The notes under the pieces are model-generated. The model saw only the letters and a list, made by a program, of their open reading frames with translations, had not been told where the DNA came from and did not search any database. The translations under genes and the position numbers were made by a program. DNA of 63,982 bases, counting the filler. It is 6 parts of 6 records of this genome, joined end to end, with 100 filler letters (N's around TTAATTAATTAA, not from the genome) between each part and the next. Parts side by side here need not be neighbours in the genome. Positions count along the whole stretch, not along the records: positions 21,056 to 33,380 come from SRR20825019_2144; 5 more parts are not named here. The stretch is one strand, 5' to 3'. This document shows positions 9,525-49,381 of this stretch, piece by piece. How positions within the stretch are numbered: the first letter of the stretch is position 1; every line of letters starts with the position of its first letter.

Positions 9525-10529
9525 TATTGACGCTCTTCCGGTCTTCCACGATGTGAAGTAGCTGATAATTAAAATGTTGTGGTGGCAAACCGTTTAAAGA
9601 ACGAAAACTCAAAGGACGAAAACCCAAAACCAGGTGCCAGAGCCAGCTTCATGAATGTGCGGCCAGCTGGGGCGGCTGGCTGTCCGGTCCGACGCCGCGG
9701 GAAGGGCGCATTATGATTTTTCCCTAGGGCCAGATACTCTAGCTAGAGGCCATCATGACGACAACAAAGAAACAAGGCAATGCCCTCCATGGCTGCCAAG
9801 CGGCGGCGGCGCCGGGCCGCAAGGACGATGACTTCCGCGATCGTGATATAGTGAACAATCGCGATTGTCCGGAAAGAGACGTCTCCGCGGAGATACCCAG
9901 GAAAAACGTTGGTGCGCCCCTCAGTCCAGTCGAGGACCGCGGCGCGGCACAATCGGAGGTATCCCGCACCCGTTGCAGACAATTCTGCAAGCGAATGCCT
10001 CGAGTCGACCTCCAGCAAACTGAGAAAGTCGTCCCCCGGCCCGGCCGGGCCCCGCCACGGTGCCGAGGCCTCATCAGCGTCCGCGTTGACCACATCCTCT
10101 CCACCGGCTTTGTTCTTGCCCACGACGGCTTCCTTCCGAATCATACAGCGCCGCCAAGCATTGGGGGGTGCTGCGCTAGGCTGGTCTTGGTGCGCCGCCA
10201 GCCCGACCCCCAGGCTGACCGGACAGGCCGGGCGCCTAAGCGTCTGAAGAGTGCGCCGTGGTGGCCAAGGAAGTGGCGCGGGCGGTTCCGGCGCTGGCCC
10301 GGCCGCCAGTCGCACAAGGAGAGCTGGCCGCACAGTTGGCCCAGCAGCGAATGGCCGCGCAAAGCCTTTAGCCGGTGCATAAGCTAGAACGAAATGCTGT
10401 ACGCCCGGCGCCAACAATCCCTATCAGACCGTGTTCCGAGTCTCGCATGGCCGTCTAACCTGCAAAATAGGCGGTGTAGTGGGTTCCAAGCCACGACTTC
10501 TTTTTATATACCTCTGTCTTGCTAGCAAA

Positions 10530-17746: not shown

Positions 17747-20564
17747 ATGTCTGGTGGACAAGGCAGAATGGTTTCGGTCTCGCTCGGACATGGAGATAGA
17801 TACGAAGGCTTCGTTCGCTCGGGTCTCTTCCACGGCCTGGGTCAACTTTCACGGAAGAGCGGGCGCAGGTTCGACATGACTTAGTAAAGTACCAAGAATG
17901 TGTCAATGATCTCAGCTTAGGTTTACGGGCGACTTTGTTGAAGGCACCCGCCATGGATATGGCGTTGAAACCATGAAGAATGGAGATAGGTATGAAGGAC
18001 AGTATCACATGGGCAAGCAGTCTGGGCTAGGTGTACATATCGTTAGCAATGGCGACAGGTTTGTAATACAAAGCTTTCAATTAATGGGAGTGTTGAAGCT
18101 GTGTGGCAGATATGAGGGTGAATTCGAGGAAGGATTGAGGTCTGGGTATGGGGTCGAGATTTATGAAAATGGTGATGTGTATGAGGGAGAGTTCTACAAA
18201 GGTTGTAAGGAAGGGTTTGGCACAATGACTTTCGCTCGTGGGCCTTGCGAGCGCTATTGCGGAGAATATAAGGTATTGGCATGGTGTTCATCAAGACTGT
18301 AGCCATTGCTGAACTCTTGGCTAGAATGATGCACGCCACGGATCTGGTCTCCTAGTCTTTGTGGATGGTCACGAGGTTGTGTCTTTCATCTGATGGATTT
18401 TCCAACGTCTAATCCACTATCTAAATAGGAGAGCTATCGCTTTGAAGCCGATGCTGCCCAGTATACCGAGATTTTCGACGAGAGACCAGCGCTCTTGGCT
18501 CAAGAAGAGGCAATTGCCGCCTCCGAAAGAGCCCGTAACTGCGCCCATAAGGTAACACTAGAGCGCAATCAACACTCATGACTGACGAAAAAAGTTCAGG
18601 CCTTGAAGAAAGTAAAACAGTTAGCGCATTTGAAGCTGCAATGCTCTCATTCGTCGGAAGAGGGCACCGAGCCTGATGAGAAGCCTGGCGGCATGGCGAG
18701 AGCCCAACTTGGTAATAGTAGGGAAGTTGGTGAACGTGGTGCTGGCGATGAGTCTGCCGCATCATATCCGAAAAATGTCACTAAAGAGGAGGCGAGAAAC
18801 AAAGAGTCAACGTGGGCAGCAAGAGTGAGGCGAATGGAAAAGAAGGTGGAGAATATGAACAGAGAAAAAAAGGTTTCTACGGGCGACTCTATGCCTCTGT
18901 TGGAAGATGCAAATAGTGACGAAGAATACAAGAAATCATCAGCAAAGAGGACGTCACAAGGTCTAGCTGCACGGATCTCTGGGTCTGAAAGCAGTGTGCC
19001 CTGGAAAGACAAGCACTCTAGCCTTAAGAGGACTAAGAATCAGGTGCGTGACTGAGACACTCAAGCACCTGTGGTCTTATTCCCTTCTGTTGTGTAGGCA
19101 TCGCTACACTCTTTTTGTGTTGCTATAATGGAACTGTCAGTCCCTAGTACATTCATGGAAGATGGAGACATGCATGGTCACCACCGTGCTAGAGGAATAT
19201 ACGTTAAGTATTCCTTTGCACGCCAAAGCAAATGTACCGCTGTGGTCAGCGAAAAGGAAAACTTTTGCACATATGAAATGAAGTCTCAACACAGGATATC
19301 TTTGAATGGCGAAGAAGATATACGATCATATCTTTCTCAACTTCCTGGAGGGATAATATTTGAGTTATGGAAGGTTGTCTGGAGTGATGTGTGGTTTTCT
19401 GTACGCTGATGCAGATTTATACATGTAGGTAACTTCGCGGAGTAACGAGATTATGGTAGGAACATCTGTGCTTCCCCTGAATGACATGCTAGATATAACC
19501 GACTTAGACGAAGCAGAATCTTGTATGTTCAGTTGTAATAGCGTGATGATACTCTTAACATTGTTGCAGGCACCGGGGTTTTCAGGCATTTCAACCTTGC
19601 TGTCCAGTTAACTGCTGATGCCGGATTTTCTCCACTGCCCTTAAGGCTAAGAGTCTCACTTGGTTACAGGTCAGCAAGGCTATGTTCAAAATGATACATC
19701 ATATGGCTAAAACATTTGAATAGGGGCGAGGAAGCCAGAAGTGAGCCTAGCCATTACGGAGGTATTTCAGTGTCGCAGATCCAGGAGGCCCTTTCAACAG
19801 TGGAACCATACAAAGGAAGACTGACCACCGAAAAGCATCGTCTTCCACCCTTCTTGGTGGGCCAGGATCCTTTTTCGGAGTCTCGGGTGTTATCCTCTCG
19901 CAAAATCCGAATAGTTCTCACTATAATGCATGCCAATGCATTGCAAGTGGCTGCACGAGAGTTGTCAAAGCTTGGTAAGTTGATCTCAGGTACCCAGGAA
20001 TATGGCGCACGGAACTAATGTTACTCAAGAGCCTGGAATGTCGTTCCCTGCTCTTTGTGGGCCTAATGTATTTGCTACGATGACAATTTGCTCAAGTGAA
20101 AAGGAGCTCTTTGGTACGACTCGGCGACGAAGAACTGCAGTTCAAGAACGCTCGTTTGACCCCTTCTTCAACCATAAGGAGACATACACAGCAATGCTGA
20201 ACGAAAATGTTCTGGAGGTAAGCAGGAATTCATAGTTTGTCGTACTGTCCTAATGAATATCTTGCAAGGTATTGAAAAAGGAATGCGCCGTGGTTCAATT
20301 ATGGCACGAAGAAGAAACTGATAAGATGCAATACCTGTTGGGTAGTGCAATGATGCCACTCCACTCCGTCCTTACCACGGGTAGGCTAGGCCGATCGCTG
20401 TTTGATTTTTTGTCTAACATTGCGCAGGGTCGGCCAAAGTAGAGAAATGGTGCCACCTGGTGACACCCTCGGGGCTGCACGGAGGCGAGGTTCTTCTTGC
20501 TCTTGCTGTGCAGAACGCTGTCCACTTCAAGGATGCTGGCGTGAAGATGGCGGCGTCGCGCTGA
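17747..20564 (+). CDS. MORN-repeat protein with two C-terminal C2-like domains, multi-exon
   Basis: About six MORN repeats (YEGFVRSGLFHGLG, FTGDFVEGTRHGYG, YEGQYHMGKQSGLG, YEGEFEEGLRSGYG, YEGEFYKGCKEGFG, YCGEYK|NDARHGSG). C2-like segments IYVKYSF...IIFELWK...VGTSVLPL and LTIMHANAL...PNVFA...RRTAVQERSFDPFFN...VQLWHE...LLGSAMMPL...KWCHL...GEVLLAL. Confidence 0.8.
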
Positions 20565-20955: not shown

Positions 20956-21055
20956 NNNNNNNNNNNNNNNNNNNNNNNNNNNNNNNNNNNNNNNNNNNNT
21001 TAATTAATTAANNNNNNNNNNNNNNNNNNNNNNNNNNNNNNNNNNNNNNNNNNNN
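20956..21055. other. Artificial contig spacer (N44-TTAATTAATTAA-N44)
   Basis: N runs flanking a six-frame stop linker; identical at five places. Confidence 0.99.
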
Positions 21056-24000
21056 CTGCCCAGTCTGACTGCACATGCCAGTGCGAAAACTTGTTCAGTG
21101 GTGCTAGGTGCAACACCTGTGATGCTATGTGTGAGAACGGCGGGACTTTGTCTTCTGACTGCTCTTGCTCGTGTCCTAATGGATTCGGTGGAGCTCGCTG
21201 CGAAACTCCTTGTGCCAATTCCTGCAACGGCAAGGGTCACATGGGCGCCGGCTGCCAGTGCCAGTGCCACGATCCATGGGCTGGGGAAGACTGCAATACC
21301 TGCTCTCGTACTACATGCCAGCATGGAGGAACTGTTTATGGTGTTACCTGCTCGTGCATCAACTGTGATAACTTGTGGAGCGGCGATGACTGTGAATCTT
21401 GCGATGTGACCTGTGCTAATGGCGGTGTGCTTGACGAGTCCACTTGCACGTGCTCCTGCTCTGGTCTTTGGACTGGCCTTACCTGCGAGACCTGCCCTGA
21501 TACCCTCTGCATGAACGGCGGCACCTTTGTCAATACCAATGGCGAGTGCAAGTGCGTATGCACCGCTGCCTGGGCTGGCCATACTTGCTCCTCTCCGTCA
21601 ACCCCAGTTGATGCCAACGCTTCCTCGGTTGAAGTCAGCTCCACTGAGGCATATGTTGGTTATGCTTACAATGTTGAGGTTCACCCTCGTCGTTCCAATG
21701 GTGCCGCTCTGAAGTATCCCGGGGATTTCTCTCTGTCCGATTTGGACTTCGTTGTCTCCGGACCCGCGGGCATGGTCAGCAACATCCAGGTGGCCGCTGC
21801 TGGCAAGGATGGCTCTGTGCTACGTGTGACTTTCACCACCTCATCTGCCGGTGATCATATCATCAACGTTCGCATTGCATCCTCGGGTGACCACTTGACG
21901 GGAAGCCCCGCCACCATCAATGCCGTGGTCGCTGATGCCATGGATATGAAGGTTGCTGTGTTCACCCCGTTGGCATACTCCGATCCCGGGATGGTTCGTT
22001 ACACGACTTCTGGTGATTCTTGCCACAATTTGATTCGCCAGACCCTTACTGCCATGGGCATTCCTCATGATTTCATTGGTGTCAAGCCGATTGTCGACGC
22101 CGGCGGCGAGTTGTCCTTGTACAACCTCGACGGTTCTGCCAAGTACTATGCCACAATTTTTGCCAGTGGTCCTGCCCTTGAGTATGATGATGGAACTGGT
22201 GCGTGGCCTAGTGCTTTCAGTGGAAACTGGAATCTGAAGACCCAGCTTGAGGACTTCGAGCGCCGCTTCAACATTCGCCGTATCGTTCTTGGATCTCACC
22301 CCTGGAGCGAACCCGCTGTGGACTTTGTTTCTTCATCTATGGATCGTGTGCAGCTTTTCTTGCATCCTAATGCCGAGAACTTTGCCACTGGCCTCAAGCC
22401 TGGAGCAAACTTCTTCGTCAAGTCCTACTACACTGCTACCACCATTACTGACTCCACAAGCACCACCCCTATGGTGACGGATTCGAACGGCAATGCCGCT
22501 GCGGTCAAGTACGTGGCCCCTGATGGCAGGGAGCAGATGCACGGCTACTGGAGCTTCTCTCCTCTCGGTGGCCAGGATGCCTCACTTGCTTTCTTCCCCG
22601 CTATGGTCCAGTGGGCTACCCGCAACACCTATGTTGGAAACAGGAGGATCTTCCTCTCAATGCACATTGACGATCACATGCTTTACACTGAGACCTGGAA
22701 CCAGGCTGATGAGGCCAACACGGGTTTGTCATACCAGGACACCTGTGAGGATTTGGACTTCCACATTAACTGGCAGAACTCTGCTTCTTCGACTCTCCCC
22801 ACCGGCTCGATGCTCAAGCTTGATCTTGCCATCAACGGTTTTGGTGGAACCTACGACGAGGGTCGGCCAGAGAGCGAGAAGCTTGGCAAGTGCACCTTTG
22901 ACCGCCGTAATGACTTCTTCATGGTGTCGCACACCTACACTCATCAGAGCCTCGATGCCCCACGTGACTATGATGGATGCCTGAACGACTTGCAGCTGAA
23001 CAAGGACTGGCTCATCAACAATGTGTGCCCCGCTGACGACAATAGCCACTGCTCCATGAATGGTCTTGTGCCTCCCATGATCACTGGTCTCTTCAATGGT
23101 GATGCCTTGAGGGCCATGGAGACTGTTGGAATCCGCGGTGCCGTTGGAGACAACACTCGGCCGGAACTGCGTCCCAACAACATGTTCCATCCCATTATCT
23201 CTTCCTCTGGTGTGAATGGCCATGACGGCATTATCATTGCCCCCCGCCACGCCACCTATGTTTTCTACAACTGTATGAACGAGGAGCAGAACTTGAACCT
23301 CATCAAGCATGTCACGCAGCCCTTCTGGTTCCGCCTTCCCACGTTTGATGGTGTCAGCCTCTTTGACATCTACATGAAGGAGGGTGAAGATGTTGTGTCT
23401 TACCTTGCCGGCTACCAGCATGATGCCTTCATGTTCCATCAGGCCAATCTGCATGTGTTCGACTGGGTCGAGGATGGTGTCACTCGCACGGACTCTCTGA
23501 CAACCATGTGGGCTCGCGCCGTGCTGCGGCAGATGGATCGCTTCAATGCTCTTCCCATTCGCTCTCTTAGCTTCGACGAGCACATTGATCTCTTTGAGGA
23601 GCGCATGAACCGCGATAGTGCCGCCCCCGCCGGTCGCCTTTTCGTGAAGGATGGTGAGGCTCGTGCCGTTGGCGTGTCTACTTCTGGTTCCAATGCCGCC
23701 CGCGTGGTTGTGTCTGGTGTTGTTCCCGAGAGCACCTCAAGCCGCATGAGCACTACTTCATATGGACCCGACAACAACTTGTTCCTTTCCATGGCCGCTC
23801 AGGATAGTGCTACTGTCAAGTTCGCCACCCCCAAGACCTGGTCGTCTTCCATGGTGATGTCTGCCCGCTCCTCCTCTGCCTCTGGCCAGGCAAAGGTGCG
23901 CCCTACCTCCAGCAAGGCCCCCTCAAACAAGGGCTATGTTGCCCTGGCCGCATGCGCTGGTTTGGCCTTCGTTGCTATGGTTTCTGTTTTCGTGTTGGTG

Positions 24001-24171
24001 ACTGACAAGGGATCGTCACCTATGGGCAAGGTCACCTTCAGGATGCCCTCTCCCACCCATAAGGCTGTGTCCACTGAGGACGAAGTCCCCAATCGCCTTC
24101 CTCAGTCGATCCGCAAGCGCACCACCACCCGCGAGAGGCGCGACTTGGCCCGCATTGATGGTGCTTTGTAG
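21056..24171 (+). CDS. Membrane-anchored Agd3-like (CE18-type) polysaccharide deacetylase with N-terminal EGF-like repeats and a filamin/Ig-like domain; 5' truncated
   Basis: CxNGG..CxC...WxGxxC repeats (21056-21590); filamin-like VTFTTSSAGDHIINV...HLTGSP; Agd3 motifs RRIFLSMHIDD, SHTYTH, PPMITGLFNGDAL, VGDNTRP, PRHATYVFYNC, DAFMFHQANL; C-terminal TM helix GYVALAACAGLAFVAMVSVFVLV. Confidence 0.85.
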
Positions 24172-24271
24172 ATGCAAGGGGAATCCTATCATTGGCTTGA
24201 ACTAACAAATAAATTCATATACCCTAATTCAAATCCACCCTCTTCTGTGGCAATGTTCCTGAAATTTTATC

Positions 24272-27200
24272 TCAAAATAGACGAGAGAGCCAGTAGTGGT
24301 ATCGTGCGGGAAGCCTCCCGGAGATGGCCACTGCCTCACGAACAACGGCATATACATCTAGCTTCTTGTTGGGCCCACCAATGCCCGCCAGAACTCGCGC
24401 ACATGACTCTGCGTCACATTGTTCCATCAGCACCGACCGGAACTGTGTCAGTATGGCGACGGTGACGAAGAAGGTGAAGGGAGCACCGCGCAAAGCCAAG
24501 TTATCCCACAACACCATCAGATCATCGACGGGGAAGATGCGGGCATATAGAGTAAGTAGCCAGGGCATTGCATATTGGTCTGGACTGCACCGGATAGCCG
24601 TCAAATGGTCAGCAAGCGGCGCATCAATAGCCAGAATAAGGGCCGCCACCGCACACACATCATCGGCCCACCGCCCCCGGGCATCAGCACTTAGATATTT
24701 CGTCGAAAACTTGGCCATGAATGCGTGGAGGATGGGGATGGCGGCGTCCTCATCGTTCTTGGCGGCCCACAGCGCCGCCTCGCCCACAATCCCCAGCCCT
24801 CTCACGTAGCCAAGCCCCTGACGCTCTTCAACAATTCCGTGCCACGACTTGAGCAGGGACCCGACCTTGGCACGCGACCGATCCGACACGTGGTGCAGCA
24901 GGCGGAGATCATCATCGATCATGCCTGCGTCGTGTGATTCAGCGTCGGGGTCACACTGGTATGGCATGTTTGGGTCTCTCATGTAATCGTTCAAGGCCGC
25001 CTGCCATACCATCAGGCGGCAGCCGTGGGGTAATCCGCGGTGGGCCTCCTGCTGGAGCTCCTTCTCAGTGACAGGATGGTGCTGGAGAAGCTCCAATATG
25101 TAATTCACACGGGAGGGTGAATCTTCTTTCTGCGTGAGCACATCACTGCCGTGGCCTGTCAATGGGACTGGTTGCCGACACATGAAGCACTCGTCCGTCC
25201 CCATCAATGTCTGCTGGCTACAAAGTTCGCATCGCCGTGGCGGTTTCGTGCCATACCGGTTTCGCGTAATGCCGAGGTCGACAAGTGTTCCAAGGATATG
25301 CCCGGCAACCCTATGGGGCTCGAGGAGCAATTTGCCTTGTAGTTGCTTCTCGGTATCGACGAGGCTATTGATTCGCCCAAGCACGAAGGCCTCGGCATCA
25401 CCTCCCGGTTTAGTGGATGACCCTTCGCTCACCTTCTTGAGCAGAGTCACAAGAATATCCCCACCTTCGCCCTCGGTGGATGCCTTGCGATTGTGCCGGC
25501 TGGCCCGCTCCAACTCTAAGCACTTTGTCCTCTCGATGTCTAGCTCGGCAACGACAGCATCGAATGACTTCTTCAGCGCATGTATCTCATTCTGTAGCAC
25601 CCGCTCCGCCTCATTTCTCTCATCCACTGCCCGGTCCACCTGTTCCTGCAAAATGGCGTGACGAGACATGATCGCCTCCACCTCCGCATGAGTGTATCCG
25701 ACCGGCGCAGGGGTTGAGCTCCTTGCACGGTCCATCTGTTCTTGGAGTTCAGTGCACTTCAGACTGGCTGCATTCTTGTCAAGTCTCAGGCGAGTGTTCT
25801 GTTCATCTAGGTCATTTTTCTTAGCCTCGAGGTCGGCGAGGGCGACTGCAAGCTGGTCCTTATCACGTTTAGCGCTCTCTGCAGTCTCGAAGGCCGCATC
25901 ACACTCGGATTGTAACCTTAGAACCTGCTCCTCGAGCGCCTCGTTGCTGCGTTCAAGGACAGCCATGCGTTGCTCCTCCGACTTCAGTGTGGAAGTCAAC
26001 GAATCCGATAGCTGCTTCTCAGCCATCATCTGCTTTTTCTCCCATCGATCCTGCATGGTCTTGGTATACTCGGCAAGCTTTCCCCGCATCTCGAGCACTT
26101 GATTATTCAGAGCCATGTTGGCATCCTTCATTTTGTTCCAGCTCGCTGCCCCGACCTTTAAACGGTTTTCAAGACTTTCATTGAGGTGCTTGGCCTCCTT
26201 AACTTCAGTCGTCAGGCTGGAAATCTGGTCTTCGTAGTACCGGCGCTCGCCCTCGGCGTGCCGGGCTCGCTCAACAGCGGCCTCCTTTTCGCCAGTGGCG
26301 CGTTGTACCTCAGAATCCTTGTCCGAAAGTTGAGTCTGCAATGATCTCAGCTCATTACGGGCAGCACGGAGATCGTCGGAAAGCTTTCCCGTCTTAGTGA
26401 CTTCTTGGTCAAGAAGTGACTTGAGGCTCATCTCAGACTCCTGCATACCCTGCATCTTGATCCGAACCGACTCCGCCTCCTGCTCCTTGAACCCGTCGAT
26501 GTTGGCCCGTAGGCCGTTGTACTTGTGCTCCATTAACACGCACTCTTGTTCCGCATCTAATCGTGCGGCACGCTCCGTTTCCACTAGCTCCACGTACTTG
26601 GACTCCTGCATTCGCTGCTTCTGCTTCTCGGACTCTACCAGCCTCTCCAGCACCTCCTTCTCCCATTCCAACTCGTGGTTCTTTTCAACCAGTGGACTGC
26701 GGATCAGAGCTGCATTGGCCAGCTCCTCCGGAGTCACATTTATGCGTTCACTGGCCAGGCGTTCCCTGGCAACTTCCAGCTGTGCCTCCAAATATGACCG
26801 CCCGCTATCGAGAGCAAGACGACGTTCCCGCTCGGTTGTCAATTCTCCTTGGAGATTCTTAATGTCATTGTGAAGCCCGGCCCTGTCCATCTCCAAACGA
26901 GAAACAGCCTCACTAGAAGAGGTTAGCTTTGCCCGGATCATGCTCTTGACTTCAATTTCTGCCTCCAGTCTTGACCGGGTTTCTTGCAGCTCTCTTTGCA
27001 ATCGTACAATGAGATCATGGAGTAGCTGCACCTCCCGGCGTGCAGAATTTTCGTGTTTCTCCAAGATTGCCTGGATTGGAGAAGGGGTCGCTGCTGCACG
27101 GGTGCTCCCAGGAGACGTCCCAGAGCCCGCCCCCGGGCTGCCGGAACCCAAGGGGGTGAAAGCCGACCCGAACTTATTGCTGCCGGGGGGAGCAGGGTGG

Positions 27201-30200
27201 GCCGGGGGGCGCGCCAATGGTGCTCGCTTACCGACAGAACCCGGTGGAGTCGCGATCTCATAGGGATTCTTGGTGGGCGGATCGTCAAGGAACGCCGCCT
27301 CAGAAGCTATTGAAACGATCGATTGCCTGTGCGTCTCGTCTTCACCTGCTGCATCCGCAGCATCTCTAGTCAATAGGGCAGACTTGAGGCTGTTGCTCCT
27401 TGACTTTGCTGCGGCCTCTGCGGCCATAGATCCGATCCCCCCAGCCTCATTCTCCAACGACAACTTACGGCTAACCTCCAGCACAGAGTCGACCTCATTA
27501 GAATACTTGTTGACCACTCGCTTCCTCTCCATGTCTATTGATTTATCCATCATCATACGATTATTACCCATTGCTGACCGACCGGCTGGATCAGGTGTTG
27601 CCGATGGTGCGCGGCCCTTAATGTTGACTCTTTGTGCCCGGTACGCCTGTTTCTTTCTCCACAGCCCCTGGACCACCAGCACCATCGTGTAAGTCTTCGT
27701 GTACTCATTTTTGTCCTTCATCATCCGTGCCGAATTCTGTAGAGTGATCGTCGCATTCTTATAGCGATTCCATCCTTGATGGCAACGCTGCTCGAAGCCC
27801 CACGCCCGCTGTGCCCGCTGAAGAACCCTTGCCGCATTTCGCACTCGGGTATACTTCTTGCGGGCCACGTAGCCACGGGTCTTCCTCTGGATTTTAACTG
27901 CCGCCCTCGTCTGCCGTTCGTGCCTTACATGCTGCCTGGCCACCATTCCCCTTCCTACACGCTGGATAGTCGCAGACGCCTTCTTAATGTTCGAATAAGC
28001 CAGCTGCTGTGCGTGTCCACGGAATCGCGTTTGGATTTTGACTGCCGCTTCTCTCATCTTAGTCTCGCGTGCTACTTCAACGGCTGCAAGCTGCCCTGCT
28101 CTCAGGAATATCTTGGTCCGCCCCACCTTGCATTCGTCCTCCTTCATGAGCTTCTTCATGATGAAGCGACAGCCTTCCTGAAAATTCCCTTCCTTTGCAT
28201 AGTCGCGATGAGGAATATCTCTCACGAGCATCTCGTAGCGGTAGTAAAAGTCCTCGTGCGTCTTCCGATTGGGAAATCCAACCGCGCTGATCCGAATAGA
28301 TTCCATCACACCCCCGCATTTCAGCTGATGAAGCACCATCTCGCTTTCAAATATACGCCCCTTCTTACGGGAATTCGGCTTTACGCAACGAATGTAATGC
28401 GTCGCACTGCGATCAATGGTCTCCATGAGCTTCGACAGTGAGTCTTTGAACTGACTGCCAACAGACACCATCTTAAAGTTAGACTGCGAGGTGGGCCGAT
28501 TTTGATGGGGATGACGACCCGGTGTGGACGATCCACGAGCTGCCGGCCTTGGCTCTTGTTCGACCAACGCAAACATATCTCTTATGTATTCGCTCTTTGA
28601 CGATGAAATTAATCTCACGTGCTCTTGGACAATGAAATCCTTGTTCTTTTCAAGGAAGGTGTCCGTACTATACGTCACGGGTCCCATGTGGTGGTCAATG
28701 GTAAATTGGGTGTTGGAAACACGGGGCTTGTGGATACAGGTGTGCTTCTGGAGGAGGTGCTCATAGAACTTCCGTGCGAGGGACTCGTGCGTAGATCTTG
28801 GCAAGATACATTCATCGTCCAACAAGGCCAATATGCCCATAGGCTTCTCAATGAGGTCTAGCACCGCCTGATTATCCCCAAAGTCTATGTACTGCCACGG
28901 GATTTCCTCTCGGGCGTATTCCTGCTGCTCCTTCTTGAACAACTGGTTTGTAAATTGCTGTTGCAGGCGCTCATTGGCGTAGTTGATGCAGAACTGTTCG
29001 AAGCTATTGGAACCAAAGCTTTCAAAGCCATAAATATCAAGAACCCCTATAATACCATCGGCGGACGAGGTGTTGTCAATGGACGCGTTGATACGCCTGA
29101 CCAGCCATTCGAACAGCTTTCCATATATGTTCTTTGCGAGCGAATCTCGCGAATGGACTGCCTGCTGCGGTGTAAGAGGAAGGGAATACTCCTCCCGACC
29201 ACCCGCAGTAATTCGGCGAGACAAAAGAGCAGCGCGTAGACTGTCTTCCTCAACATTCAGCAGGTGTGATGCCGCCTGCACTGATTTCTCGTTCAATATG
29301 ACAGCACCTTCTCCTGCCGGATCCTTATCAAACTCGATATCCCCGAGGTGCAACAGAGACGCGACAAGACGAAACACAAAATCTACTTCTGCCTCCAATA
29401 GCCCCACAACAGACATAGCCTTCCTCAACAGCCGGAATCGCTCAACATCGTCTACACCGTCAATTGATGTGCACCCACTCTGCGAAAGGTAAAAGTGGTC
29501 CTCTGGACAGCCCAACCGCAACTCTTGTCGCATTTTTTCATCGGCTCCTCGTGTAAGCTGATAGAAGACGTGGAAGTTCCGTTCATACTCCGACTGGTGT
29601 ACAAGACGAGACTTCTCAAGGAGATACGTGCGAATGGTCGCACCAGCGATAGCCGAATTCTTGTCAAACTGGATCTCAATGAACTTTCCAAATCGAGAGG
29701 AATTGTCGTTCCTCTGAGTCTTAGCATTCCCAAAGGCTTCTAATATGGGCGTGCTCTCTAAAACCTGGTCCTGGATGTTTCTATTTCCTGTGATGCCCCC
29801 GCGACTGGCCAAGTATTCCATTACAATCTTCGTCGTAACTGTCTTGCCAGACCCACTCTCACCGCTCACCAATACACACTGGTTGATACCATCCCCCTGA
29901 AGTGACCGGAACGCCTCGTCCGCCACAGTATATACATGCGGTGCAGCCTCTCCATATCGCTTGCCATAATAGCTCTCCATAACAGACTTCTTATAAAGCG
30001 GCAGGTCTCTGTAAGGATTCACCGCAATCAACATTCCAAAGTTGACGCCCACATTGGTGTATATCTTGTCTGTGCGGAAGCGTTCTCTCATGCTGTGCAA
30101 CACAGCCGCATCATGCAAAAACGAAAGAGATACAAGGTCGTCTGATGCCTCGACAACCGTGGGATTCATCCGAAGAACATCCGAATCGCTCACTACAGCT

Positions 30201-30370
30201 ACTTCGCCGTCGTTCTGTCTAACTTCAAGCCTTCCGCCATCTCCCACTGACATGACAGATCCCGGAACCCACAACTCCGTCTCATTCGGCACGAAAACCC
30301 GCGAGCCCTTTCCCAGTGGTGGGAGGCCCTTCGGAGGGGTTGCCGGCACACGTGCAGGCGTCGACGTCAT
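24272..30370 (-). CDS. Myosin heavy chain (class V/XI-like motor, IQ neck, coiled coil) with C-terminal CxxC-CxxC motif and TBC/Rab-GAP-like domain
   Basis: GESGSGKT P-loop, LEAFGNAKTQRNDNSSRFGK, DIYGFE, FEQFCINYANE; ~5-6 IQ motifs; long coiled coil; CELC...CFMC; TBC hallmarks GLPHGCRLMVW, YVRGL, YAMPWLLTLY, LWDNL. Intronless, 2032 aa. Confidence 0.93.
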   Translation of the reverse strand: MTSTPARVPATPPKGLPPLGKGSRVFVPNETELWVPGSVMSVGDGGRLEVRQNDGEVAVVSDSDVLRMNPTVVEASDDLVSLSFLHDAAVLHSMRERFRTDKIYTNVGVNFGMLIAVNPYRDLPLYKKSVMESYYGKRYGEAAPHVYTVADEAFRSLQGDGINQCVLVSGESGSGKTVTTKIVMEYLASRGGITGNRNIQDQVLESTPILEAFGNAKTQRNDNSSRFGKFIEIQFDKNSAIAGATIRTYLLEKSRLVHQSEYERNFHVFYQLTRGADEKMRQELRLGCPEDHFYLSQSGCTSIDGVDDVERFRLLRKAMSVVGLLEAEVDFVFRLVASLLHLGDIEFDKDPAGEGAVILNEKSVQAASHLLNVEEDSLRAALLSRRITAGGREEYSLPLTPQQAVHSRDSLAKNIYGKLFEWLVRRINASIDNTSSADGIIGVLDIYGFESFGSNSFEQFCINYANERLQQQFTNQLFKKEQQEYAREEIPWQYIDFGDNQAVLDLIEKPMGILALLDDECILPRSTHESLARKFYEHLLQKHTCIHKPRVSNTQFTIDHHMGPVTYSTDTFLEKNKDFIVQEHVRLISSSKSEYIRDMFALVEQEPRPAARGSSTPGRHPHQNRPTSQSNFKMVSVGSQFKDSLSKLMETIDRSATHYIRCVKPNSRKKGRIFESEMVLHQLKCGGVMESIRISAVGFPNRKTHEDFYYRYEMLVRDIPHRDYAKEGNFQEGCRFIMKKLMKEDECKVGRTKIFLRAGQLAAVEVARETKMREAAVKIQTRFRGHAQQLAYSNIKKASATIQRVGRGMVARQHVRHERQTRAAVKIQRKTRGYVARKKYTRVRNAARVLQRAQRAWGFEQRCHQGWNRYKNATITLQNSARMMKDKNEYTKTYTMVLVVQGLWRKKQAYRAQRVNIKGRAPSATPDPAGRSAMGNNRMMMDKSIDMERKRVVNKYSNEVDSVLEVSRKLSLENEAGGIGSMAAEAAAKSRSNSLKSALLTRDAADAAGEDETHRQSIVSIASEAAFLDDPPTKNPYEIATPPGSVGKRAPLARPPAHPAPPGSNKFGSAFTPLGSGSPGAGSGTSPGSTRAAATPSPIQAILEKHENSARREVQLLHDLIVRLQRELQETRSRLEAEIEVKSMIRAKLTSSSEAVSRLEMDRAGLHNDIKNLQGELTTERERRLALDSGRSYLEAQLEVARERLASERINVTPEELANAALIRSPLVEKNHELEWEKEVLERLVESEKQKQRMQESKYVELVETERAARLDAEQECVLMEHKYNGLRANIDGFKEQEAESVRIKMQGMQESEMSLKSLLDQEVTKTGKLSDDLRAARNELRSLQTQLSDKDSEVQRATGEKEAAVERARHAEGERRYYEDQISSLTTEVKEAKHLNESLENRLKVGAASWNKMKDANMALNNQVLEMRGKLAEYTKTMQDRWEKKQMMAEKQLSDSLTSTLKSEEQRMAVLERSNEALEEQVLRLQSECDAAFETAESAKRDKDQLAVALADLEAKKNDLDEQNTRLRLDKNAASLKCTELQEQMDRARSSTPAPVGYTHAEVEAIMSRHAILQEQVDRAVDERNEAERVLQNEIHALKKSFDAVVAELDIERTKCLELERASRHNRKASTEGEGGDILVTLLKKVSEGSSTKPGGDAEAFVLGRINSLVDTEKQLQGKLLLEPHRVAGHILGTLVDLGITRNRYGTKPPRRCELCSQQTLMGTDECFMCRQPVPLTGHGSDVLTQKEDSPSRVNYILELLQHHPVTEKELQQEAHRGLPHGCRLMVWQAALNDYMRDPNMPYQCDPDAESHDAGMIDDDLRLLHHVSDRSRAKVGSLLKSWHGIVEERQGLGYVRGLGIVGEAALWAAKNDEDAAIPILHAFMAKFSTKYLSADARGRWADDVCAVAALILAIDAPLADHLTAIRCSPDQYAMPWLLTLYARIFPVDDLMVLWDNLALRGAPFTFFVTVAILTQFRSVLMEQCDAESCARVLAGIGGPNKKLDVYAVVREAVAISGRLPARYHYWLSRLF

Positions 30371-30479
30371 TGATGACCACCCGCGCTACTTGACAGATTT
30401 GAGCTTAGACTAGCTCATACATAAAGTTGATATACACCAGATGCTGCGTTTGGTCCTCAGCCTTGCTACCAATAGGTCG

Positions 30480-31400
30480 GCCATAGTGGGCGGCGGCATG
30501 GGGCCAGTGCGACACGCAACTCTGAGTGGCCATGCCCGTCTCCGCGAGACCGATGCCGCGGCGCAGGGGCGGGCCCGGTTGGACTGCCAGGTGGGCCCGT
30601 GGCACTCTGGCGCGGCTGACCGCGGGCCGGCCGGTTCAGGAGTCGCCGAGTGCCCGGCGCCGGGCCGGGCGGGGGCGGGCGCCCGCACTCAGCACCCGGA
30701 GTCCACGAGTCGGCGCTTTGTGCGGCTCGCGGGCCGCGTCGAGGCCGGGGGCCGGCCCCCGCGGCCCCGGACCGGGTCGCCCGGGTCGCGGGCCGGCGCC
30801 GCCGGAGGGCTGAGAGTCACCGGCACCTGCCCGCGAGGGCCTCGCCGGCGTCTCTGAGCCGTGGCAAGCCCTCACTTTGATCTCGCGGTTGGTACTTCGT
30901 ATATACTAAATCCGATATAATACTATTTTTGACAAAGGGAGTTTTGCAAGGTTTTGAATTCGTCAGTTTGTCCGCGAAAAAATCAGCGGTGGACAAACTT
31001 CGGGAATTTTCCACTTAGCGCGTGTCTGGGACGTGCCCAGACCGCTCACCCTGAAAGTTGAGTGCCAGGGAGACGGTGCCGGCGTGAGTCCGGATCCGGC
31101 CCGCCCGCCCGCCGGTCAGGCCGGTGGTGCCCGTCACAGTCTCTCAGAGTGTTGACCGCCTGAGCCTCCGGCCTGAGTGCGCCATCCGGCGCGCCCGGCG
31201 ACCCGCCCGGGCGCGGTGCCGTGCGACGGCCGGCCACGGACGCCGGCGCGGCCCCGCAACTCCGGCAATTCGGCTCCGCGACAAACGGTGGGTCGGTGCC
31301 AGCCTCACGCTGGGGCCTCGGGACTCCGGCGCCGGGGCCCTCATCCATCCCGCTCCGCTGGGCGCCGGGGCCGGTAAGGCCGGGGGCTCACAGGTTTGTG
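30480..31400. promoter_or_regulatory. Paired GC-rich islands between divergent myosin and RING genes
   Basis: Two CpG-dense blocks (30480-30870, 31040-31400) separated by an AT-rich ~150-bp spacer. Confidence 0.5.
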
Positions 31401-31637
31401 CACCTGTTAAGTCCGTGCCTTGTTCCGCTACCCATCATGGCTACCAATCATGGCTGAACCCCAGACCAAACTCAACAACATTGCCACTACTTGATCCAGT
31501 CGGTTTGGGTGGGGTTCCCACGCCAAGGTGTCGTGCAACGACCACGGGCCTGCACCGAGTCACTAAATATATAAACGTCACTACAATCCGAGAGTGTTCT
31601 ATGCTTAACACAAGGTCCAATACTCCTTGGCTTAGAA

Positions 31638-32921
31638 ATGGCAGACACACTGTCCCATATCGGAGGAACACCATCGAGTGTGTTGGGACCCAACGATGTT
31701 GTATTCAACACCTACAGCTTGACTGTTGCTGCTACGTGCTTGATCCCTGCTACGATTCTTTTAACTATGCTTGTTTATCTCATGATGAGTATGTGCACTG
31801 GTAGAGTGCTGGATCAGCTTTCTCAGGACGATGAAGCTGGCGATGGCACTGTGACCTCAAACCTCACTGAAGATGGGGCTGAGACTGGAGATGTTGAAGG
31901 GACCAATTTCTCCTTACTCTTTCGCAGACTGCACACTCTACTGATGTCTAACGGAATGGGCTTGATGCTCCCTGATCATGGATATACGGACGACGAAGGG
32001 GAAAGTGATGACGATGACGATGACGGACCCACAGTTCACCCTCTCGTACCATCGTCTCCAGAGTCGAAGGAAATTTCGCTCCCGGAGGCAGACATACACA
32101 ACCCGAGTGGGGAATTCTTGGGAAAGGAACTAGCAACTGGTGGCGAACTTCGGTGTCCGATTTGTTTGGGAATATTTAGGGACGCTTGTGTTACGTCCTG
32201 TGGCCATACATTCTGTGCAAATTGTATCCTTCGTTGCGCGCGTCCGGTGTCTCGTAAGCGGTCACGGAGTCGATCTGGGTCCTTCTCGAATGAAGATGGA
32301 GAAGGAGGCTGCGTGGAGATGGCGGTGTGCCCTATTGACCGTCAGCCCATTCACGGGATATTCAAATGCTTCACTGTAAGGAATATGGTTGAAAGGGCGG
32401 TAGAGGAATCAACATCGTCGGTGTATCCTCGGTCAGATTCAGCTTGCAGTGTATCTGGGCCTCGTCGCAGGGTAGTTAGCCATCTGGGTTTGGGAGAAGA
32501 CAAGGACGCTAGTGGGGAGGATACTGTACCAAAGCTGCCTTCGGGAGTGGATGCCGATACCATCGAGAAAGCGATCGCATACTACAACAACCTTTTCTTC
32601 AAGAAAGTTGAGAATAATCACGCGCCATCAACCGACCTGCCGTCCTCTCCGCACCTGCTATTTGCATTAGTGTTTGTTGTGTTCATGGTGCTGTATACTA
32701 AGTCAACATCTATCATCGATAGCAACGACCTCAACGGGGAGGCTGTCCTGATCTGTTCCGCGATCATGGTTGGTATGCTGGGGGCATGCGTGATATTTGG
32801 TATCCTCACTTGTGTGGCCATTCGGCACTTCCTGCGAGGTGTGTCTGCTCTCATTGTTGTGGAGTGCCCACAGAACTATGTTGGCTCGCCACACGATGAG
32901 GTGGTGCATCTGTACGTGTGA
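31638..32921 (+). CDS. Membrane RING-HC E3 ubiquitin ligase, RNF170-like
   Basis: N-terminal TM; CPICL...SCGHTFCANC...CPIDRQ RING; IAYYNNLF...DLP motif resembling RNF170; two C-terminal hydrophobic helices. Confidence 0.78.
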   Translation: MADTLSHIGGTPSSVLGPNDVVFNTYSLTVAATCLIPATILLTMLVYLMMSMCTGRVLDQLSQDDEAGDGTVTSNLTEDGAETGDVEGTNFSLLFRRLHTLLMSNGMGLMLPDHGYTDDEGESDDDDDDGPTVHPLVPSSPESKEISLPEADIHNPSGEFLGKELATGGELRCPICLGIFRDACVTSCGHTFCANCILRCARPVSRKRSRSRSGSFSNEDGEGGCVEMAVCPIDRQPIHGIFKCFTVRNMVERAVEESTSSVYPRSDSACSVSGPRRRVVSHLGLGEDKDASGEDTVPKLPSGVDADTIEKAIAYYNNLFFKKVENNHAPSTDLPSSPHLLFALVFVVFMVLYTKSTSIIDSNDLNGEAVLICSAIMVGMLGACVIFGILTCVAIRHFLRGVSALIVVECPQNYVGSPHDEVVHLYV

Positions 32922-33380
32922 GCGGTTTCCGGCCAGCGATCACCTGTTCTTAAAAAAGAACACCTGGTTATATATTTAGTAATAATGTAAATCTATTAAT
33001 TCCGATCTGTGAGACTTGAATTGATTTCTGGAAACTCTTTCCCTACTGGCTCCGGACGGGGAGAAACGAAACGGCTTTTGAATTGGACCGCTGCGGGACC
33101 GGGTCGTGCCGTGCACCCACCGCATCCGGCCCGAGGCCCGCTGCACCGTGATCAGTTGGAACCGGCGTGCCGATCGGTGCCGGCCGGGCGGCCGGCGCCG
33201 CCGCCACCGCCGGGCCTCATAGCATCGCCTCACGTGGCCACAACCGCCGACGTGACGGTTGAAGGTGCGAAAACAGACTGAACGGCCCGGCGATGGGACC
33301 GTCGCAGCGCTCGTCACGCGGCGAGGACGACGGGCGGGCGGCCCGCGGGCCGGGGAGGGCGGGGGGGGGGGGGGGGGGGG

Positions 33381-33480
33381 NNNNNNNNNNNNNNNNNNNN
33401 NNNNNNNNNNNNNNNNNNNNNNNNTTAATTAATTAANNNNNNNNNNNNNNNNNNNNNNNNNNNNNNNNNNNNNNNNNNNN
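33381..33480. other. Artificial contig spacer
   Basis: N44-TTAATTAATTAA-N44. Confidence 0.99.
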
Positions 33481-34199
33481 AGAGTGCTCCTTTTGTGGTT
33501 GCTTGAGGTCGAATTCATTTGCTGGATTCGTAGAATCCGTACAATTCTCTAAACATACGATCCTTTCACCTGTAATCAAATTATTCGAGGAGGGCCTCCA
33601 ACTGCAGACTGTTCAAATTAGGGCAAAGCCCGCCCTAAGTCTCGCTCACCGGCCACCCGGCCCGAAAGCGTACGGCGACGATGGGCACCAGGGCGTCGGC
33701 CTGGTGAAGGGCAGTCATCCGTCACTCGGGATGGAGTCCGCCCGGGTGCGGGAATCCCCAGAAGCCGCCCCTCACTCACCGGGCTTGGGCGAGCGGCGGG
33801 CGGCGGCCGGTCACCAGAGGCAAGCCGTCCGCGGTGGCTGACTCAGCGTCCCACTGGGCGAGACTCCTCATCCAACAACCGCCCATACTACCTCGGCACG
33901 CGGCGACCGGACCTGAGCGACTTCGCGGAACGATGGTCGCCTCTGCCTGGGCCGGATACAACTTCGACTGACCCGTGCAGGACCGCGCTATAGGGCACTT
34001 CTTGGCCGGAGGAGTCGCCCTTGCGTAACCGTCAACTCACCTTGCTTGATGCACAAGGAGCGCCAAGCAGTTGTCCAAGGCAGCGGAGTACCTTTCTCAA
34101 CTTACACGGCCTTCTTCCTTGTTTTATATGCGTGAGACACAAACTCAGAGCGTCCAACTGTAGGCGACAAGCCAAACAATAGTTTACAGACTAGATAGC

Positions 34200-37100
34200 A
34201 TGGACGACTTAGATACCTTGTCTGTTGGCTCGCTGTCTGATGATGGAGGCGAGTCCACAACAATCGAACAGATTCCTAAGAACACAAAGAAGTCAAAAAA
34301 GACGGACAGTGCTTTTCCTGCGCTGTCTTCTCGCAGCAAGGGCGGCGTGGACGCCGAACTCGCTTTTTTGAAGTCCCTGCCTGCCGAAATGATGCCACAG
34401 CAGCCTTCGCGGCCAACCTCAGGTATGCAAACTGAAGGTCTCGGTTTGATAAGTTCTAAGGTATACTATCTAGCACCCATGCACCGTGGTGGACACAAGC
34501 CTGTGAGGCAGCAAGGCAGCGTCACTTCAGACGCCGTTGACCGAACACTTACAGAGGAAGCCAGTATGGTAAGCGCTGTCAGCAGCGATATGAGCGTGGG
34601 CTTTGGTGGTAGGAAGCTTCGCCAAAGGGCAAGCACAAGCCGTACACGCCGCCGTGTCAGCCGGGGGAGGAAGCGGTCAGCAAGCCACAGCCGCAGCCGC
34701 AGCCGCAGCCCTAACCGCAGCAGCGTAGACGCCATGAAGACCATGCATGGGGTTAAGCCCCAGCGCAAGGCCTGGGCGTTACCAGCCAAGAGTGCGGATG
34801 GTGAATTGGCAAAGGAGGACAGGGTGGTCCGAAACCCCCCGGTACCCCACAAGGATACAGAAAGGCTTGAGGAAGAGATAACCGAACTTAAGAAGCAGCT
34901 GAACCAGTCCAAGAGGGAGCGGTCGGACTTGCGTGTGCGTGCTTCAAAACTTGAGAAGGAGCTACACAAGCGAGAGGATCAAATTGAAGATTTCCTCAGG
35001 GGCAAGTCGTCGGGTGGAGGCACCCGTGCAATAGAGAAGCTTCGTGCTGAGACTGGCATGATGCGCAACTTAAAGCGGATGGTGAATGACTTGGAGTCTG
35101 CACTATCCGAAAAAGAGGACGAGTTGCGTCGAGTCAAGAATGCTAAGAAGCACCGCAAAATTTCTGAGCTTGAGGGCAAGCTGCGGAAGTATTATGAGGA
35201 GAACTCCAGGCTCCAGGAGATGCTGGACACAGGCGCATACCTTAGCGCTGATGATGGTGCACGCCCAGCCAATGCGGCTGCCATCCATCGCCTTGAGAAA
35301 CGTATGGAGAAGCTCAAGCAGAAGAACAAAGAACTTAAGAGCGAAAATTATTTCCTTGCTGTCGATTTGACATCTTATATCAAGGATAACGACAAACTCG
35401 CTCAGAAGTCCTTTGAGGGGGCGCCTAGCAGCCCTGCGGGGCCTGCGGCAACAAGGAATCTCGAGGAAGAGGAGTACATAGAGAAGGTTCGCATGGAAAA
35501 CAATAAGTTGAAGAACCACATCAGAGTAATTGACGACCGTGCACGAGTATTGGAGAACGAACTCGCTCAGCTAAAGGATGTGTACGAACGGGACACTGAG
35601 GCATACCGCCGTCGCGAGGAAAAGGCAGCTACGTCAATCCAATCTTCGTTTAGGGGTTATAAGACTAGGAAGGGTCTTGCGGATCAGCTGGCGTCCCGGC
35701 TTAAGGAACTCGAAGACCGTGCTAAGACGATTGAGGAGGAGAGGCAGATGTATGAACACGCCCTTTATGGGATCCGCAAAGGAGACTGGCGTGGTCAGGA
35801 AGAACCCCGTGGTCGGACCGTCGGTGGTCTCGCACGCCCTGCTTCGGCATCCCATTCTCGTACGGCCTCCCATTCTCGTTCCTCTCGTCCAGCTTCCGCA
35901 ACACCAACCCGGGCAAGCGGGAGATATTCCTCCCATCATTCCAGGGCGTCGTCACCAAACGGAAGCATGAGGAGCAGCAGCCCATCTCCTCATCAGGGCT
36001 CCCCTTACGATCTGAGTAAGTACCCTCGTGACGAGATCGTGCGGCTGCAGCAGTGGTATCGAAGGAAGATATCCATTAATCGGGAGATGGAGATGCACAG
36101 GCAGATCAGGATGAAAAGGATGAAGGACATCTCCCTTGTCGAGAGCATGGATAGCGATTTTGGTCGGGGCAGAAAGAGGGCGAGGTCGCCATCGCGGACA
36201 ACGACCGCCCGTACATCGAGGTCTTTGAGTGGCTCCGGGTCTCCAGCGTCCCGCAATTCTCGCTCCTCCTCCCTCAACGAGCAAGATCTAGTTGACCTGG
36301 AACTTGAGGTAATCCGTTTGCAGAGCTGGTGGCGCGGGGAGCGTGATCGTGCATATGCTGATCACTTGTACGAGGAAAGACTTAGGCGGAGAAATGATCG
36401 CTCACGCAAGAATGAGGCTAAGAAGAACAAAAGGAGTGGCCAGAGCACCGGATCCCAGAGCGTGTATGGAAACCGAAATGCTAGCGCGCTTATCATACAA
36501 AAGACTTGGCGCGGATTTTGGGGAAGAAGGTGGTACTTGGACAATAGGACACGTCTACGCATGCAAAGGACCAAGCGCGGGCGCGCCTTCGCGAAGTCTA
36601 CAAGCATCCAGACCGATGAAGTTGAGAAATTGTTTGCTTCGCTTTTGGAGAGGCTTTGCGAGGTGTACAACGGTCCCGACAAGGACATGCCTGTCCGTTT
36701 CGTAGCAACGAAGAAGATGCTGAATCACGACAAGGAATATGTTGCGCTCAAGATGAAGTATCCTTTTATCCACCACTACATGATCACTGCAACAAACGGC
36801 ATGAAGTTGCTCGGCCGGTCACTCAGAGGAGAGGCGGCTACCGATTTCGTGAATGGTCTCAAGGAAGACCTCACGGATCTCTTGTCTGTGATCCGCAAGG
36901 AGTATGAAGATACTGATTTCTCCGGTTTGGATCCTCTTCATGAAGCCTTCATCTCACAAATTAGGGCGCTGAAGGACTTGGGTGATGTGACTCCGCCAGT
37001 ATTAGAAAAAACGGAGGACTTCACTGCTTTCTTGTGCTCGCTCAGCGAAGCGTTCCGGGCGGTGTCTTCCAATCTTCCGGGGAGGGATATGGGACGGACA

Positions 37101-43100: not shown

Positions 43101-43120
43101 TTCATGTCCGCCCTCGGTAC
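34200..43120 (+). CDS. Giant (>2970 aa, 3' truncated) IQ-motif protein: IQCE-like coiled coil, 4 IQ motifs, five ~305-aa internal repeats
   Basis: Single intronless ORF. EEITELKK...KLEKELHKREDQIEDFL...LRKYYEENSRLQEML resembles IQCE. IQ motifs IQSSFRGY, LQQWYRRK, LQSWWRGE, IQKTWRGF. Repeats carry (GIV)FLSSLASL and NFxxMxxSxSFxRF. Confidence 0.88.
42228..42300 (+). repeat. Coding hexamer repeat (CCC-AAG/CCC-GAG) encoding a PK/PE linker
   Basis: PKPEPKPEPEPKPKPEPEPKPEPK. Confidence 0.85.
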
Positions 43121-43220
43121 NNNNNNNNNNNNNNNNNNNNNNNNNNNNNNNNNNNNNNNNNNNNTTAATTAATTAANNNNNNNNNNNNNNNNNNNNNNNN
43201 NNNNNNNNNNNNNNNNNNNN
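43121..43220. other. Artificial contig spacer
   Basis: N44-TTAATTAATTAA-N44. Confidence 0.99.
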
Positions 43221-44326
43221 ATCAGCACCGGCTTGGTGATGTGGTGGTTGGGCATCATGGTGGCGTAGCCGCCGGTGAGGTTCGGTACGCTCACGCCGAT
43301 GATGGCGTCTTTGACCGCATCCACGTCGGTGGTGCCGGCTTTCTTCACCGCTTCGATGTACATGTTGAAGCCGATGTAGTGGGCTTCCATCGGGTCGTTG
43401 GTGACGGCTTCTTCGTTGCCGGTGTGCTCGATCCACTGGTCGATGAAGTCGTAGTTGGCATCGCTGTCCACACTCATGAAGTAGTTCCATGCCGCCAGGT
43501 GGCCAACCAGCGGGCCGGTGTCGATACCGGAAAGCTCCTGCTCACCCACGGAGAACGCCACCACCGGGATGTCGGAAGCGGAGATGCCCTGGTTACCCAG
43601 TTCACGGTAGAACGGTACGTTGGCGTCGCCGTTGATGGTGGAGACCACAGCGGTCTTCTTACCGGCGGAGCCGAAACGCTTGATGTCAGACACGATGTTC
43701 TGCCAGTCGGAGTGACCGAAAGGCGTGTAGTTGATCATGATGTCTTCCTTGGCAACGCCCTGGTCCATCAGGTAGGTCTCAAGGATCTTGTTGGTGGTGC
43801 GCGGGTACACGTAGTCGGTACCGGCCAGCACCCAGCGTTCAACACCGATGTTGTTCATCAGGTAGTCCACCGCAGGAATGGCCTGCTGGTTGGGCGCGGC
43901 ACCGGTATAGAAAACGTTCTCGGAAGATTCTTCACCTTCGTACTGAACCGGGTAGAACAGCAGGCCGTTGAGTTCTTCAACCACCGGCAGGACGGATTTA
44001 CGGGAAACCGAGGTCCAGTTGCCGAAAATCACGTCCACTTTTTCCTGAGCCAGAAGCTCACGGGCCTTTTCGGCGAACAGCGGCCAGTTGGAGGCAGGGT
44101 CAACCACGACCGCTTCCAGTTCACGGCCCAGAACACCACCTTCGGCGTTCTGCTTGGCGATGAGCATTTCGACGGTGTCTTTCAGCACGGTTTCACTGAT
44201 TGCCATGGTGCCCGACAGGGAGTGGAGGATGCCGACCTTGATGGGATCTTCGGCGGCCGCTGCGCTAAGAGACATTGAGAGAGCCAGTGCTGACAGGCCC
44301 AGTTTCACGTGTTTTCTAATCGTCAT
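43221..44326 (-). CDS. urtA: Urea ABC transporter substrate-binding protein, 3' truncated
   Basis: Signal peptide; IKVGILHSLSGTMAISE, WTSVSRKSVLPV, FYPVQYEGEE, GTDYVYPRTTN; AAGGA RBS before ATG 44326. Confidence 0.95.
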
Positions 44327-49362: not shown

Positions 49363-49381
49363 TACCACCGAGTCAGGCGGT

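Follow-up and report, generated by a model that had tools for sequence, protein, structure and literature searches.

A myosin with a probably inactive TBC (RabGAP-fold) domain as its tail

Myosin tails decide the cargo of the motor, and new tail domains mark new transport routes; what, then, would be carried by a myosin whose tail ends in the fold of a Rab GTPase-activating protein (RabGAP)? This question is raised by a single gene on contig B, one of six contigs making up the 63,982-base window analysed here (by the window we mean the whole stretch of DNA at its full length). A sequence-only reading of the window had described the encoded protein as a myosin with an IQ neck, a coiled coil of about 500 residues and a TBC domain in the place of the DIL cargo domain, and this architecture was recovered by Pfam, AlphaFold, Foldseek and hhalign. 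We describe below the fold and the relatives of the tail, the state of its catalytic residues, the motor and the stalk, the reality of the fusion, and the readings of its function that may be considered.

The Pfam scan proposed as a check in the sequence-only reading matched RabGAP-TBC to residues 1815-1982 of the tail with an E-value of 1.2e-16 (61.5 bits, cut-off 25.2), RabGap-TBC_2 likewise passed (28.8 bits, cut-off 27), and DIL (PF01843) was not among the 12 Pfam families found at E<=1 for the whole protein. Comparison of the tail with a profile of 65 relatives by hhalign gave a probability of 99.8% and an E-value of 5.8e-29 over 278 columns, and profile alignment puts the domain at 24296-25114, the location first read from the letters being about 24300-25060; the protein ends 7 residues past the domain. 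An AlphaFold2 model of the tail, built with 100 relatives, has a mean predicted local distance difference test score (pLDDT) of 81.8 and a predicted template modelling score (pTM) of 0.73, with ten-residue blocks at 86-98 over the TBC domain. When this model was compared with the PDB by Foldseek, 33 matches were obtained at E<=0.001, and TBC domains account for every match listed down to rank 31, their template modelling (TM) scores reaching 0.81 by target length; TBC1D1, the Chlamydomonas flagellar RabGAP, RABGAP1L, TBC1D20 and TBC1D7 are among them.

As for the relatives of this domain, an exhaustive phmmer search with residues 1641-2032 against 1.84 billion representatives produced 578 matches at E<=0.001, none of which reached E<=1e-30, the best one having an E-value of 4.7e-24 and 33% identity. 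Among the best 65 tail matches, TBC was present in all 65, Pkinase in 44 and Rhodanese in 26, and because Pkinase, TBC and Rhodanese together constitute the TBCK architecture, these relatives can be considered TBCK-type. The kinase, TBC and rhodanese class has been named TBC-G and, in the TBC evolution paper by Gabernet-Castello et al. (PMC3655817), is given as occurring in Opisthokonta, Amoebozoa and Excavata. Neither a kinase nor a rhodanese domain was found in the present protein by the Pfam scan. On the best explanation, a TBC domain of TBCK-type (TBC-G) origin has taken the place of the DIL globular tail.

The catalytic fingers of this domain are changed at both positions. The motifs IDDDLRL and YVRG, quoted in the sequence-only reading, are present as I1818-D-D-D-L-R1823-L1824 and Y1855-V-R1857-G. 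The Arg-finger column (IxxDxxR) contains Arg in 89 of the 90 ungapped rows of the 100 best relatives and Leu in the query, while the column preceding it contains Pro in 84 relatives and R1823 in the query, with a 5-residue deletion of the query following right after the motif in the alignment. The Gln-finger column has Gln in 95 of 96 ungapped rows but Arg in the query, the flanking Tyr and Gly being conserved. The placement of both fingers was identical by MAFFT and by hhalign, and the RxxxW motif has been kept (R1785 and W1789; Arg in 88/88 and Trp in 88/89 ungapped relatives). The Gln to Arg change is unambiguous in these alignments and, because the Gln finger is absent, no dual-finger catalysis would be expected; loss of GAP activity is therefore probable. 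The work of Pan et al. 2006 reportedly found that loss of either finger abolishes TBC catalysis. Human TBCK retains both finger residues, according to a preprint (bioRxiv 10.64898/2026.04.02.716191), and since both are kept by human TBCK and by the TBCK-type relatives, the loss is particular to this protein and not to its class.

At the other end of the protein, the motor domain has intact ATPase motifs (P-loop at residues 170-177, switch I at 221-229, switch II at 445-450) and is followed by a neck in which three IQ stretches were found by Pfam (E 2.6e-9) and five IQ motifs by a pattern of our own (residues 779, 802, 827, 850 and 877), with a possible sixth at residue 899. The closest motor sequences in the PDB were myosin XI (663 and 652 bits), myosin Va (641) and Dictyostelium myosin II (607). 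In the large searches our statements concern the best 120 to 150 matches; in the motor search, among the best 120 of 7990, the top matches, at 44-46% identity, were to myosin XI of plants and to myosin V of amoebozoans and animals, and a DIL tail is borne by most of the best of these 120. The label "class V/XI-like" applied to the motor in the sequence-only reading holds by similarity. Our limited tree was a quick IQ-TREE run of 31 rows with 30 of the 120 motor matches, 90 being left out, and with no outgroup from another class; in it the query branch is long (1.42), belongs to none of the clades of plant XI (support 100), metazoan V (100) and amoebozoan V-like (92) myosins and is paired with another long branch, to which a long-branch warning applies. 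As far as sequence comparison goes, "V/XI-like" is a statement of motor similarity and not of class membership.

Between the neck and the tail lie a linker, which is probably disordered to judge by its composition, and a stalk rich in Glu, Leu, Ala and Arg (E 15%, L 11%, P+G 4%), across which a crude heptad score of our own is raised (residues 1126-1620). Modelled in two copies, residues 1290-1640 formed a parallel in-register homodimer over approximately residues 1299-1432, in which residue i contacts residue i in steps of 7, with a score of 0.32 against 0.00 for the best of 3 controls; contact agreement across the runs was at least 53% and partner pLDDT at least 67. In calibration, this mark was attained by 21 of the 30 proteins solved as one-chain pairs and by none of 23 solved as single chains and, on eukaryotes, by 17/29 pairs and 0/30 single chains, though by just 1 of 7 without an older solved relative. 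The outcome for the stalk may accordingly be a product of memory, coiled coils resembling many solved structures. Between stalk and TBC domain, the CELC...CFMC motif that had been described as zinc-ribbon-like is indeed a Cys4 motif, but a zinc-ribbon fold is unsupported by profile or confident model: no significant zinc-finger profile was found in the Pfam scan (zf-C3HC4_3 at E 0.23) and pLDDT of the segment is below 50.

Whether the fusion itself is real was approached through the composition of the gene and through contigs of two public runs of one sample, designated X1 and X2. The G+C content at third codon positions is 0.57-0.66 across all six segments of the open reading frame (ORF), with no composition break. 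The X1 and X2 contigs align collinearly, with zero joints, to 24249-26045 and 26058-26995, thus spanning residues ~1126-2032 bar a 12-base gap at ~99% identity to the window and bridging the stalk, the Cys4 segment and the TBC domain. Because these contigs are collinear and jointless, the junction of coiled coil and TBC domain is not an assembly artefact. The chimeric assembly that the sequence-only reading had named as a refuting result was thus not seen over this part of the gene. No X1 or X2 contig covers 26996-31595, so that the motor and the motor-stalk join have no independent support from these runs, the join falling within the same single open frame. Within the gene, 14 differences separate these contigs from the window, 10 of them synonymous and none in the finger codons. 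Both neighbouring genes are covered separately by X1 and X2 contigs, which terminate at gene borders, and the loose ends of several contigs resemble, as we take it, the SMART template-switch oligo; owing to these ends and stops, the contigs look like cDNA, although no RNA run is listed as a holder of the gene. On the best explanation, this is a real and apparently transcribed gene of a microbial eukaryote. Contig B carries three intron-free genes spaced about 100 bases to 1.3 kb apart. At the convergent border at 24223-24270, contig ends at 24223/24230 and at 24249/24270 lie ~20-45 bases apart, and the myosin contigs run 2-23 bases beyond the stop codon, the gene spacing being very compact.

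The search for other proteins combining myosin and TBC, also suggested in the sequence-only reading, returned none from the databases searched or the myosin papers checked. From the side of the tail, a word-indexed search among proteins of 1117-3556 residues gave 0 of 7960 candidates at E<=0.001, a myosin head was absent from the best 65 of the 578 phmmer matches, and the two matches longer than 1900 residues among the best 150 of those 578 are both kinase and TBC proteins. From the side of the motor, PF00566 is listed for none of the best 120 of the 7990 matches. Metagenomes scanned with the tail yielded no relative. Scanned with the motor, they yielded 45 loci (350 kb), in which identity across the full motor did not exceed ~47% and tblastn detected no relative of the TBC part; just four weak matches were obtained in these loci at E<=1 (E 0.035-0.99), to the Cys4 segment. 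In the ESM Atlas no cluster held both families, all scores being below 0.9 and usable as leads only. With regard to the literature, TBC, RabGAP and Rab are unmentioned in the main text, figures apart, of two large myosin classifications (PMC3942036 and PMC5583752), TBC and RabGAP are unmentioned in the supplements of the latter and in all but one file of those of the former, and likewise in PMC5455982; myosin is unmentioned in the text of PMC3655817. Judged by titles and abstract openings, no myosin-TBC fusion is described in the papers listed by a literature search, though absence from print is not proven, as domain architectures are mostly drawn in figures. Within the scope of these searches, the protein adds a type of tail to those seen in myosins and a branch without fingers to the TBC domains of the TBCK type, one gene being known so far.

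How might such a protein work? Taken as a whole, the reading we prefer, tentatively and at not quite even chances, is that the dead TBC tail is a cargo receptor, most likely for GTP-Rab. The protein would be a two-headed motor resembling those of classes V and XI, having a long lever arm made of IQ motifs and a stalk that ends in a pair of TBC domains. The tail would be unable to perform the dual-finger GAP reaction and would be used for binding, its likeliest partner being a Rab in the GTP-bound state on an endosome or vesicle, and the dimeric motor would carry that membrane along actin without a separate adaptor. Tails of myosins V and XI bind Rabs directly, through DIL, and the same coupling logic would here be executed with a disabled GAP fold. 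Finger-less TBC classes act as binding or scaffold modules. Several classes without one or both fingers, including TBC1D7, TBC1D23 and TBC1D24, are recorded in PMC3655817. Use of the tail as a Rab-binding cargo adaptor, as had been suggested from the letters, is plausible.

A number of points weigh against this reading. We are less sure that the Arg finger has been lost than that the Gln finger has, because R1823 stands one residue before the column, beside the 5-residue deletion, and a structural shift that places R1823 as the finger would be possible; R1857, in the Gln-finger place, might join other chemistry. In the limited tree the motor lies outside the three clades named above; no orthologue that could speak to conservation of the tail was obtained in any search; and the partner of the tail, whether a Rab or another, is putative. 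The tail may instead be a scaffold for a non-Rab partner, protein or lipid, which would tie the motor to that complex and not directly to a Rab, as TBC1D7 is placed in the TSC complex, TBCK in the FERRY complex and TBC1D24 with lipid. We consider this, although on balance unlikely, a serious rival to a Rab adaptor, because the nearest relatives of the tail are of the TBCK type and this type is without a known Rab partner: according to PMC11928052, no Rab substrate or Rab binding is demonstrated for TBCK, and PPP1R21 is the only subunit of the multi-subunit FERRY complex reported to bind Rab5. That finger-less TBC classes, such as those of PMC3655817, are known scaffolds also speaks for a non-Rab partner, while retention of the RxxxW motif and of the overall TBC fold, which is equally compatible with Rab binding, speaks against it. 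A further reading, which we regard as quite improbable, is that the tail retains the partner of its TBCK-type ancestors, the motor replacing the TBCK pseudokinase and plugging into a FERRY-like Rab5 effector complex on early endosomes; if true, endosomes, and perhaps mRNA cargo, would be hauled along actin via a dead GAP domain, and both a new myosin class and a new cargo-coupling principle would be at hand.

It is improbable, in our estimate, that the tail is instead an active, non-canonical GAP, with R1823 shifted by one and R1857 in the Gln place, making the protein a RabGAP carried by its own motor and inactivating Rabs at the ends of actin tracks. Myosin IX offers a precedent for a motorised GAP and the structural shift just mentioned could restore the Arg finger, yet the Gln kept by nearly all relatives is Arg here, the Pro-Arg to Arg-Leu change was found in two independent alignments, and loss of either finger is, as said, reported to be sufficient to abolish catalysis. 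Far less credible still is a mis-assembly or mis-joined contig in which separate genes for a myosin and a TBC protein would have come to share a frame: the assembly does mix eukaryotic and bacterial contigs and contig B terminates in a poly-G run, but the gene is a single 6.1-kb open frame with even third-position composition, contigs of two runs bridge the coiled coil, Cys4 segment and TBC domain, and the motor-stalk join lies inside the same frame. Giant viruses of protists are known to carry myosin genes, and the compactness of contig B, with its intron-free genes, contrasts with the ~50-base introns in the cysteinyl-tRNA synthetase gene of contig A; even so, it is very unlikely that contig B belongs to such a virus and not to a cell. 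No relative turned up when viral contigs were scanned with motor, tail and neighbouring gene, the tail model had 0 matches at E<=0.001 in a viral structure library, the tetranucleotide signature of contig B correlates at 0.81-0.82 with those of contigs A and C, and 0 of the 11 long ORFs of the window that were scanned match families named for capsid or polymerase, the shorter ORFs of contig B being outside that scan.

Table 1. Coordinates of the six contigs and of the features of the myosin-TBC gene in the window.
Feature	Position	Strand	Evidence or remark
Contig A	1-20955		
Contig B, bearer of the myosin-TBC gene	21056-33380		between spacers 20956-21055 and 33381-33480; 12.3 kb, eukaryotic
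Contig C	33481-43120		
Contig D	43221-50088		
Contig E	50189-57358		
Contig F	57459-63982		
Whole coding sequence, ATG to stop	24272..30370	-	2032 codons + stop, no intron needed
SH3-like N-terminal region, residues 22-65	30176..30307	-	Pfam Myosin_N E 3.3e-4, 20.8 bits, below cut-off of 27; weak
Myosin motor domain, residues 77-757	28100..30142	-	Pfam Myosin_head E 4e-245, profile 2-679 of 679
IQ neck, five to six motifs, residues ~775-908	27647..28048	-	Pfam IQ and own pattern; spacing 23-27 residues
Ala/Ser/Pro/Gly-rich linker, residues 926-1125	26996..27595	-	P+G 17%, A 14%, S 12%
Coiled-coil stalk, residues ~1126-1640	25451..26995	-	heptad score and composition
Cys4 motif CxxC-x10-CxxC, C1714-C1731	25178..25231	-	pattern in sequence
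TBC (RabGAP-fold) domain, residues 1753-2025	24296..25114	-	profile alignment to relatives, Pfam, AlphaFold, Foldseek
Codons R1823 and L1824	24899..24904	-	L1824 is the Arg-finger column, R1823 the column of Pro in relatives
Codon R1857	24800..24802	-	Gln-finger column (YxQ reads YVR)

The coordinates of these features are collected in Table 1. The window is read as six contigs placed end to end, not as one molecule, because it is divided by five identical spacers (44 N, TTAATTAATTAA, 44 N) at 20956-21055, 33381-33480, 43121-43220, 50089-50188 and 57359-57458. By tetranucleotide signature, contigs A, B and C show correlations of 0.77-0.82 among themselves and of 0.47-0.70 with D, E and F. Contigs D and F contain bacterial-type genes in operon-like order (Peripla_BP_5, LutA/B/C-like, EamA, glyoxalase, phosphotransferase system (PTS) enzyme I, GNAT and two aminotransferases), and enzyme I of contig F shares 98% protein identity with its counterpart in a Nisaea metagenome-assembled genome. 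In our reading, the assembly therefore combines a protist with bacteria (a Nisaea-like, marine alphaproteobacterium); the bacterial genes have no physical linkage to the myosin-TBC gene, and a bacterial origin of the latter was rejected, as these genes sit on other contigs. Contig A is eukaryotic; its cysteinyl-tRNA synthetase gene (7883-9593, minus strand) is interrupted by GT-AG introns, and one of its exons, of 149 residues, has its best named matches in Amoebozoa at 62-68% identity; the eukaryotic contigs are possibly amoebozoan, this single exon being a weak pointer.

The remaining content of the contigs can be described briefly. On contig B, the gene neighbouring the myosin at 21127-24171 (plus strand) encodes a 1014-residue protein with EGF-like repeats, a filamin repeat, CBM87 and an Agd3-type deacetylase domain, a family known from fungal galactosaminogalactan processing; this ORF probably extends past the contig start, and X1/X2 word depth there is the highest on the contig. 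The terminus of the same contig (33355-33380) is a run of G, which is presumably an artefact of sequencing chemistry and not biology. Contig A also carries a 91-base tRNA-Arg(CCG) gene (3057-3147, plus strand), the length of which would accommodate an intron, and a fragment of a MORN-repeat ORF (17910-18302, plus strand). On contig C, an open frame of more than 2900 codons (34200-43120, plus strand) is ended by the contig edge and has IQ motifs as its sole Pfam match; ORFs that cross spacers, such as a 2990-residue one ending at 43172, are artefactual at the crossing end. Contig E has a G+C content of 0.61, and none of its six ORFs of at least 120 residues, all of which were scanned, has a Pfam match.

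If the preferred reading of the tail as a receptor for GTP-Rab is true, the gene would provide a compact natural case of an enzyme fold turned cargo receptor, with actin transport coupled directly to the Rab code and no adaptor in between. Moreover, it supplies from nature a TBC domain of the TBCK type, a type still little understood, in which the fingers are missing, and the partner of this tail could point to that of the TBC domain of TBCK. The value of the finding is limited for now by its being a single gene, in a mixed assembly, for which no orthologues were found.

Compared with known systems, the protein shares with the class V/XI myosins (Va, plant XI and amoebozoan myosin 5) the most similar motor, about six IQ motifs, a dimerising coiled coil and a C-terminal cargo end, but has TBC where they have the DIL globular tail. 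To TBCK and the TBC-G class, with their pseudokinase, TBC and rhodanese, its TBC domain is the closest, although it is without kinase and rhodanese and has both finger columns changed, which that class keeps. With the finger-less TBC proteins (TBC1D7, TBC1D23, TBC1D24, TBC1D19 and WDR67, as given in PMC3655817) it shares a TBC fold minus one or both catalytic residues; these belong to other TBC classes and none of them is joined to a motor. Finger-less TBC proteins and the present tail, as we prefer to read it, would also have binding instead of catalysis in common. Finally, class IX myosins likewise bear a small-GTPase regulator domain in a myosin tail, but theirs is a catalytically active RhoGAP fold, carried by a single-headed motor of another class.

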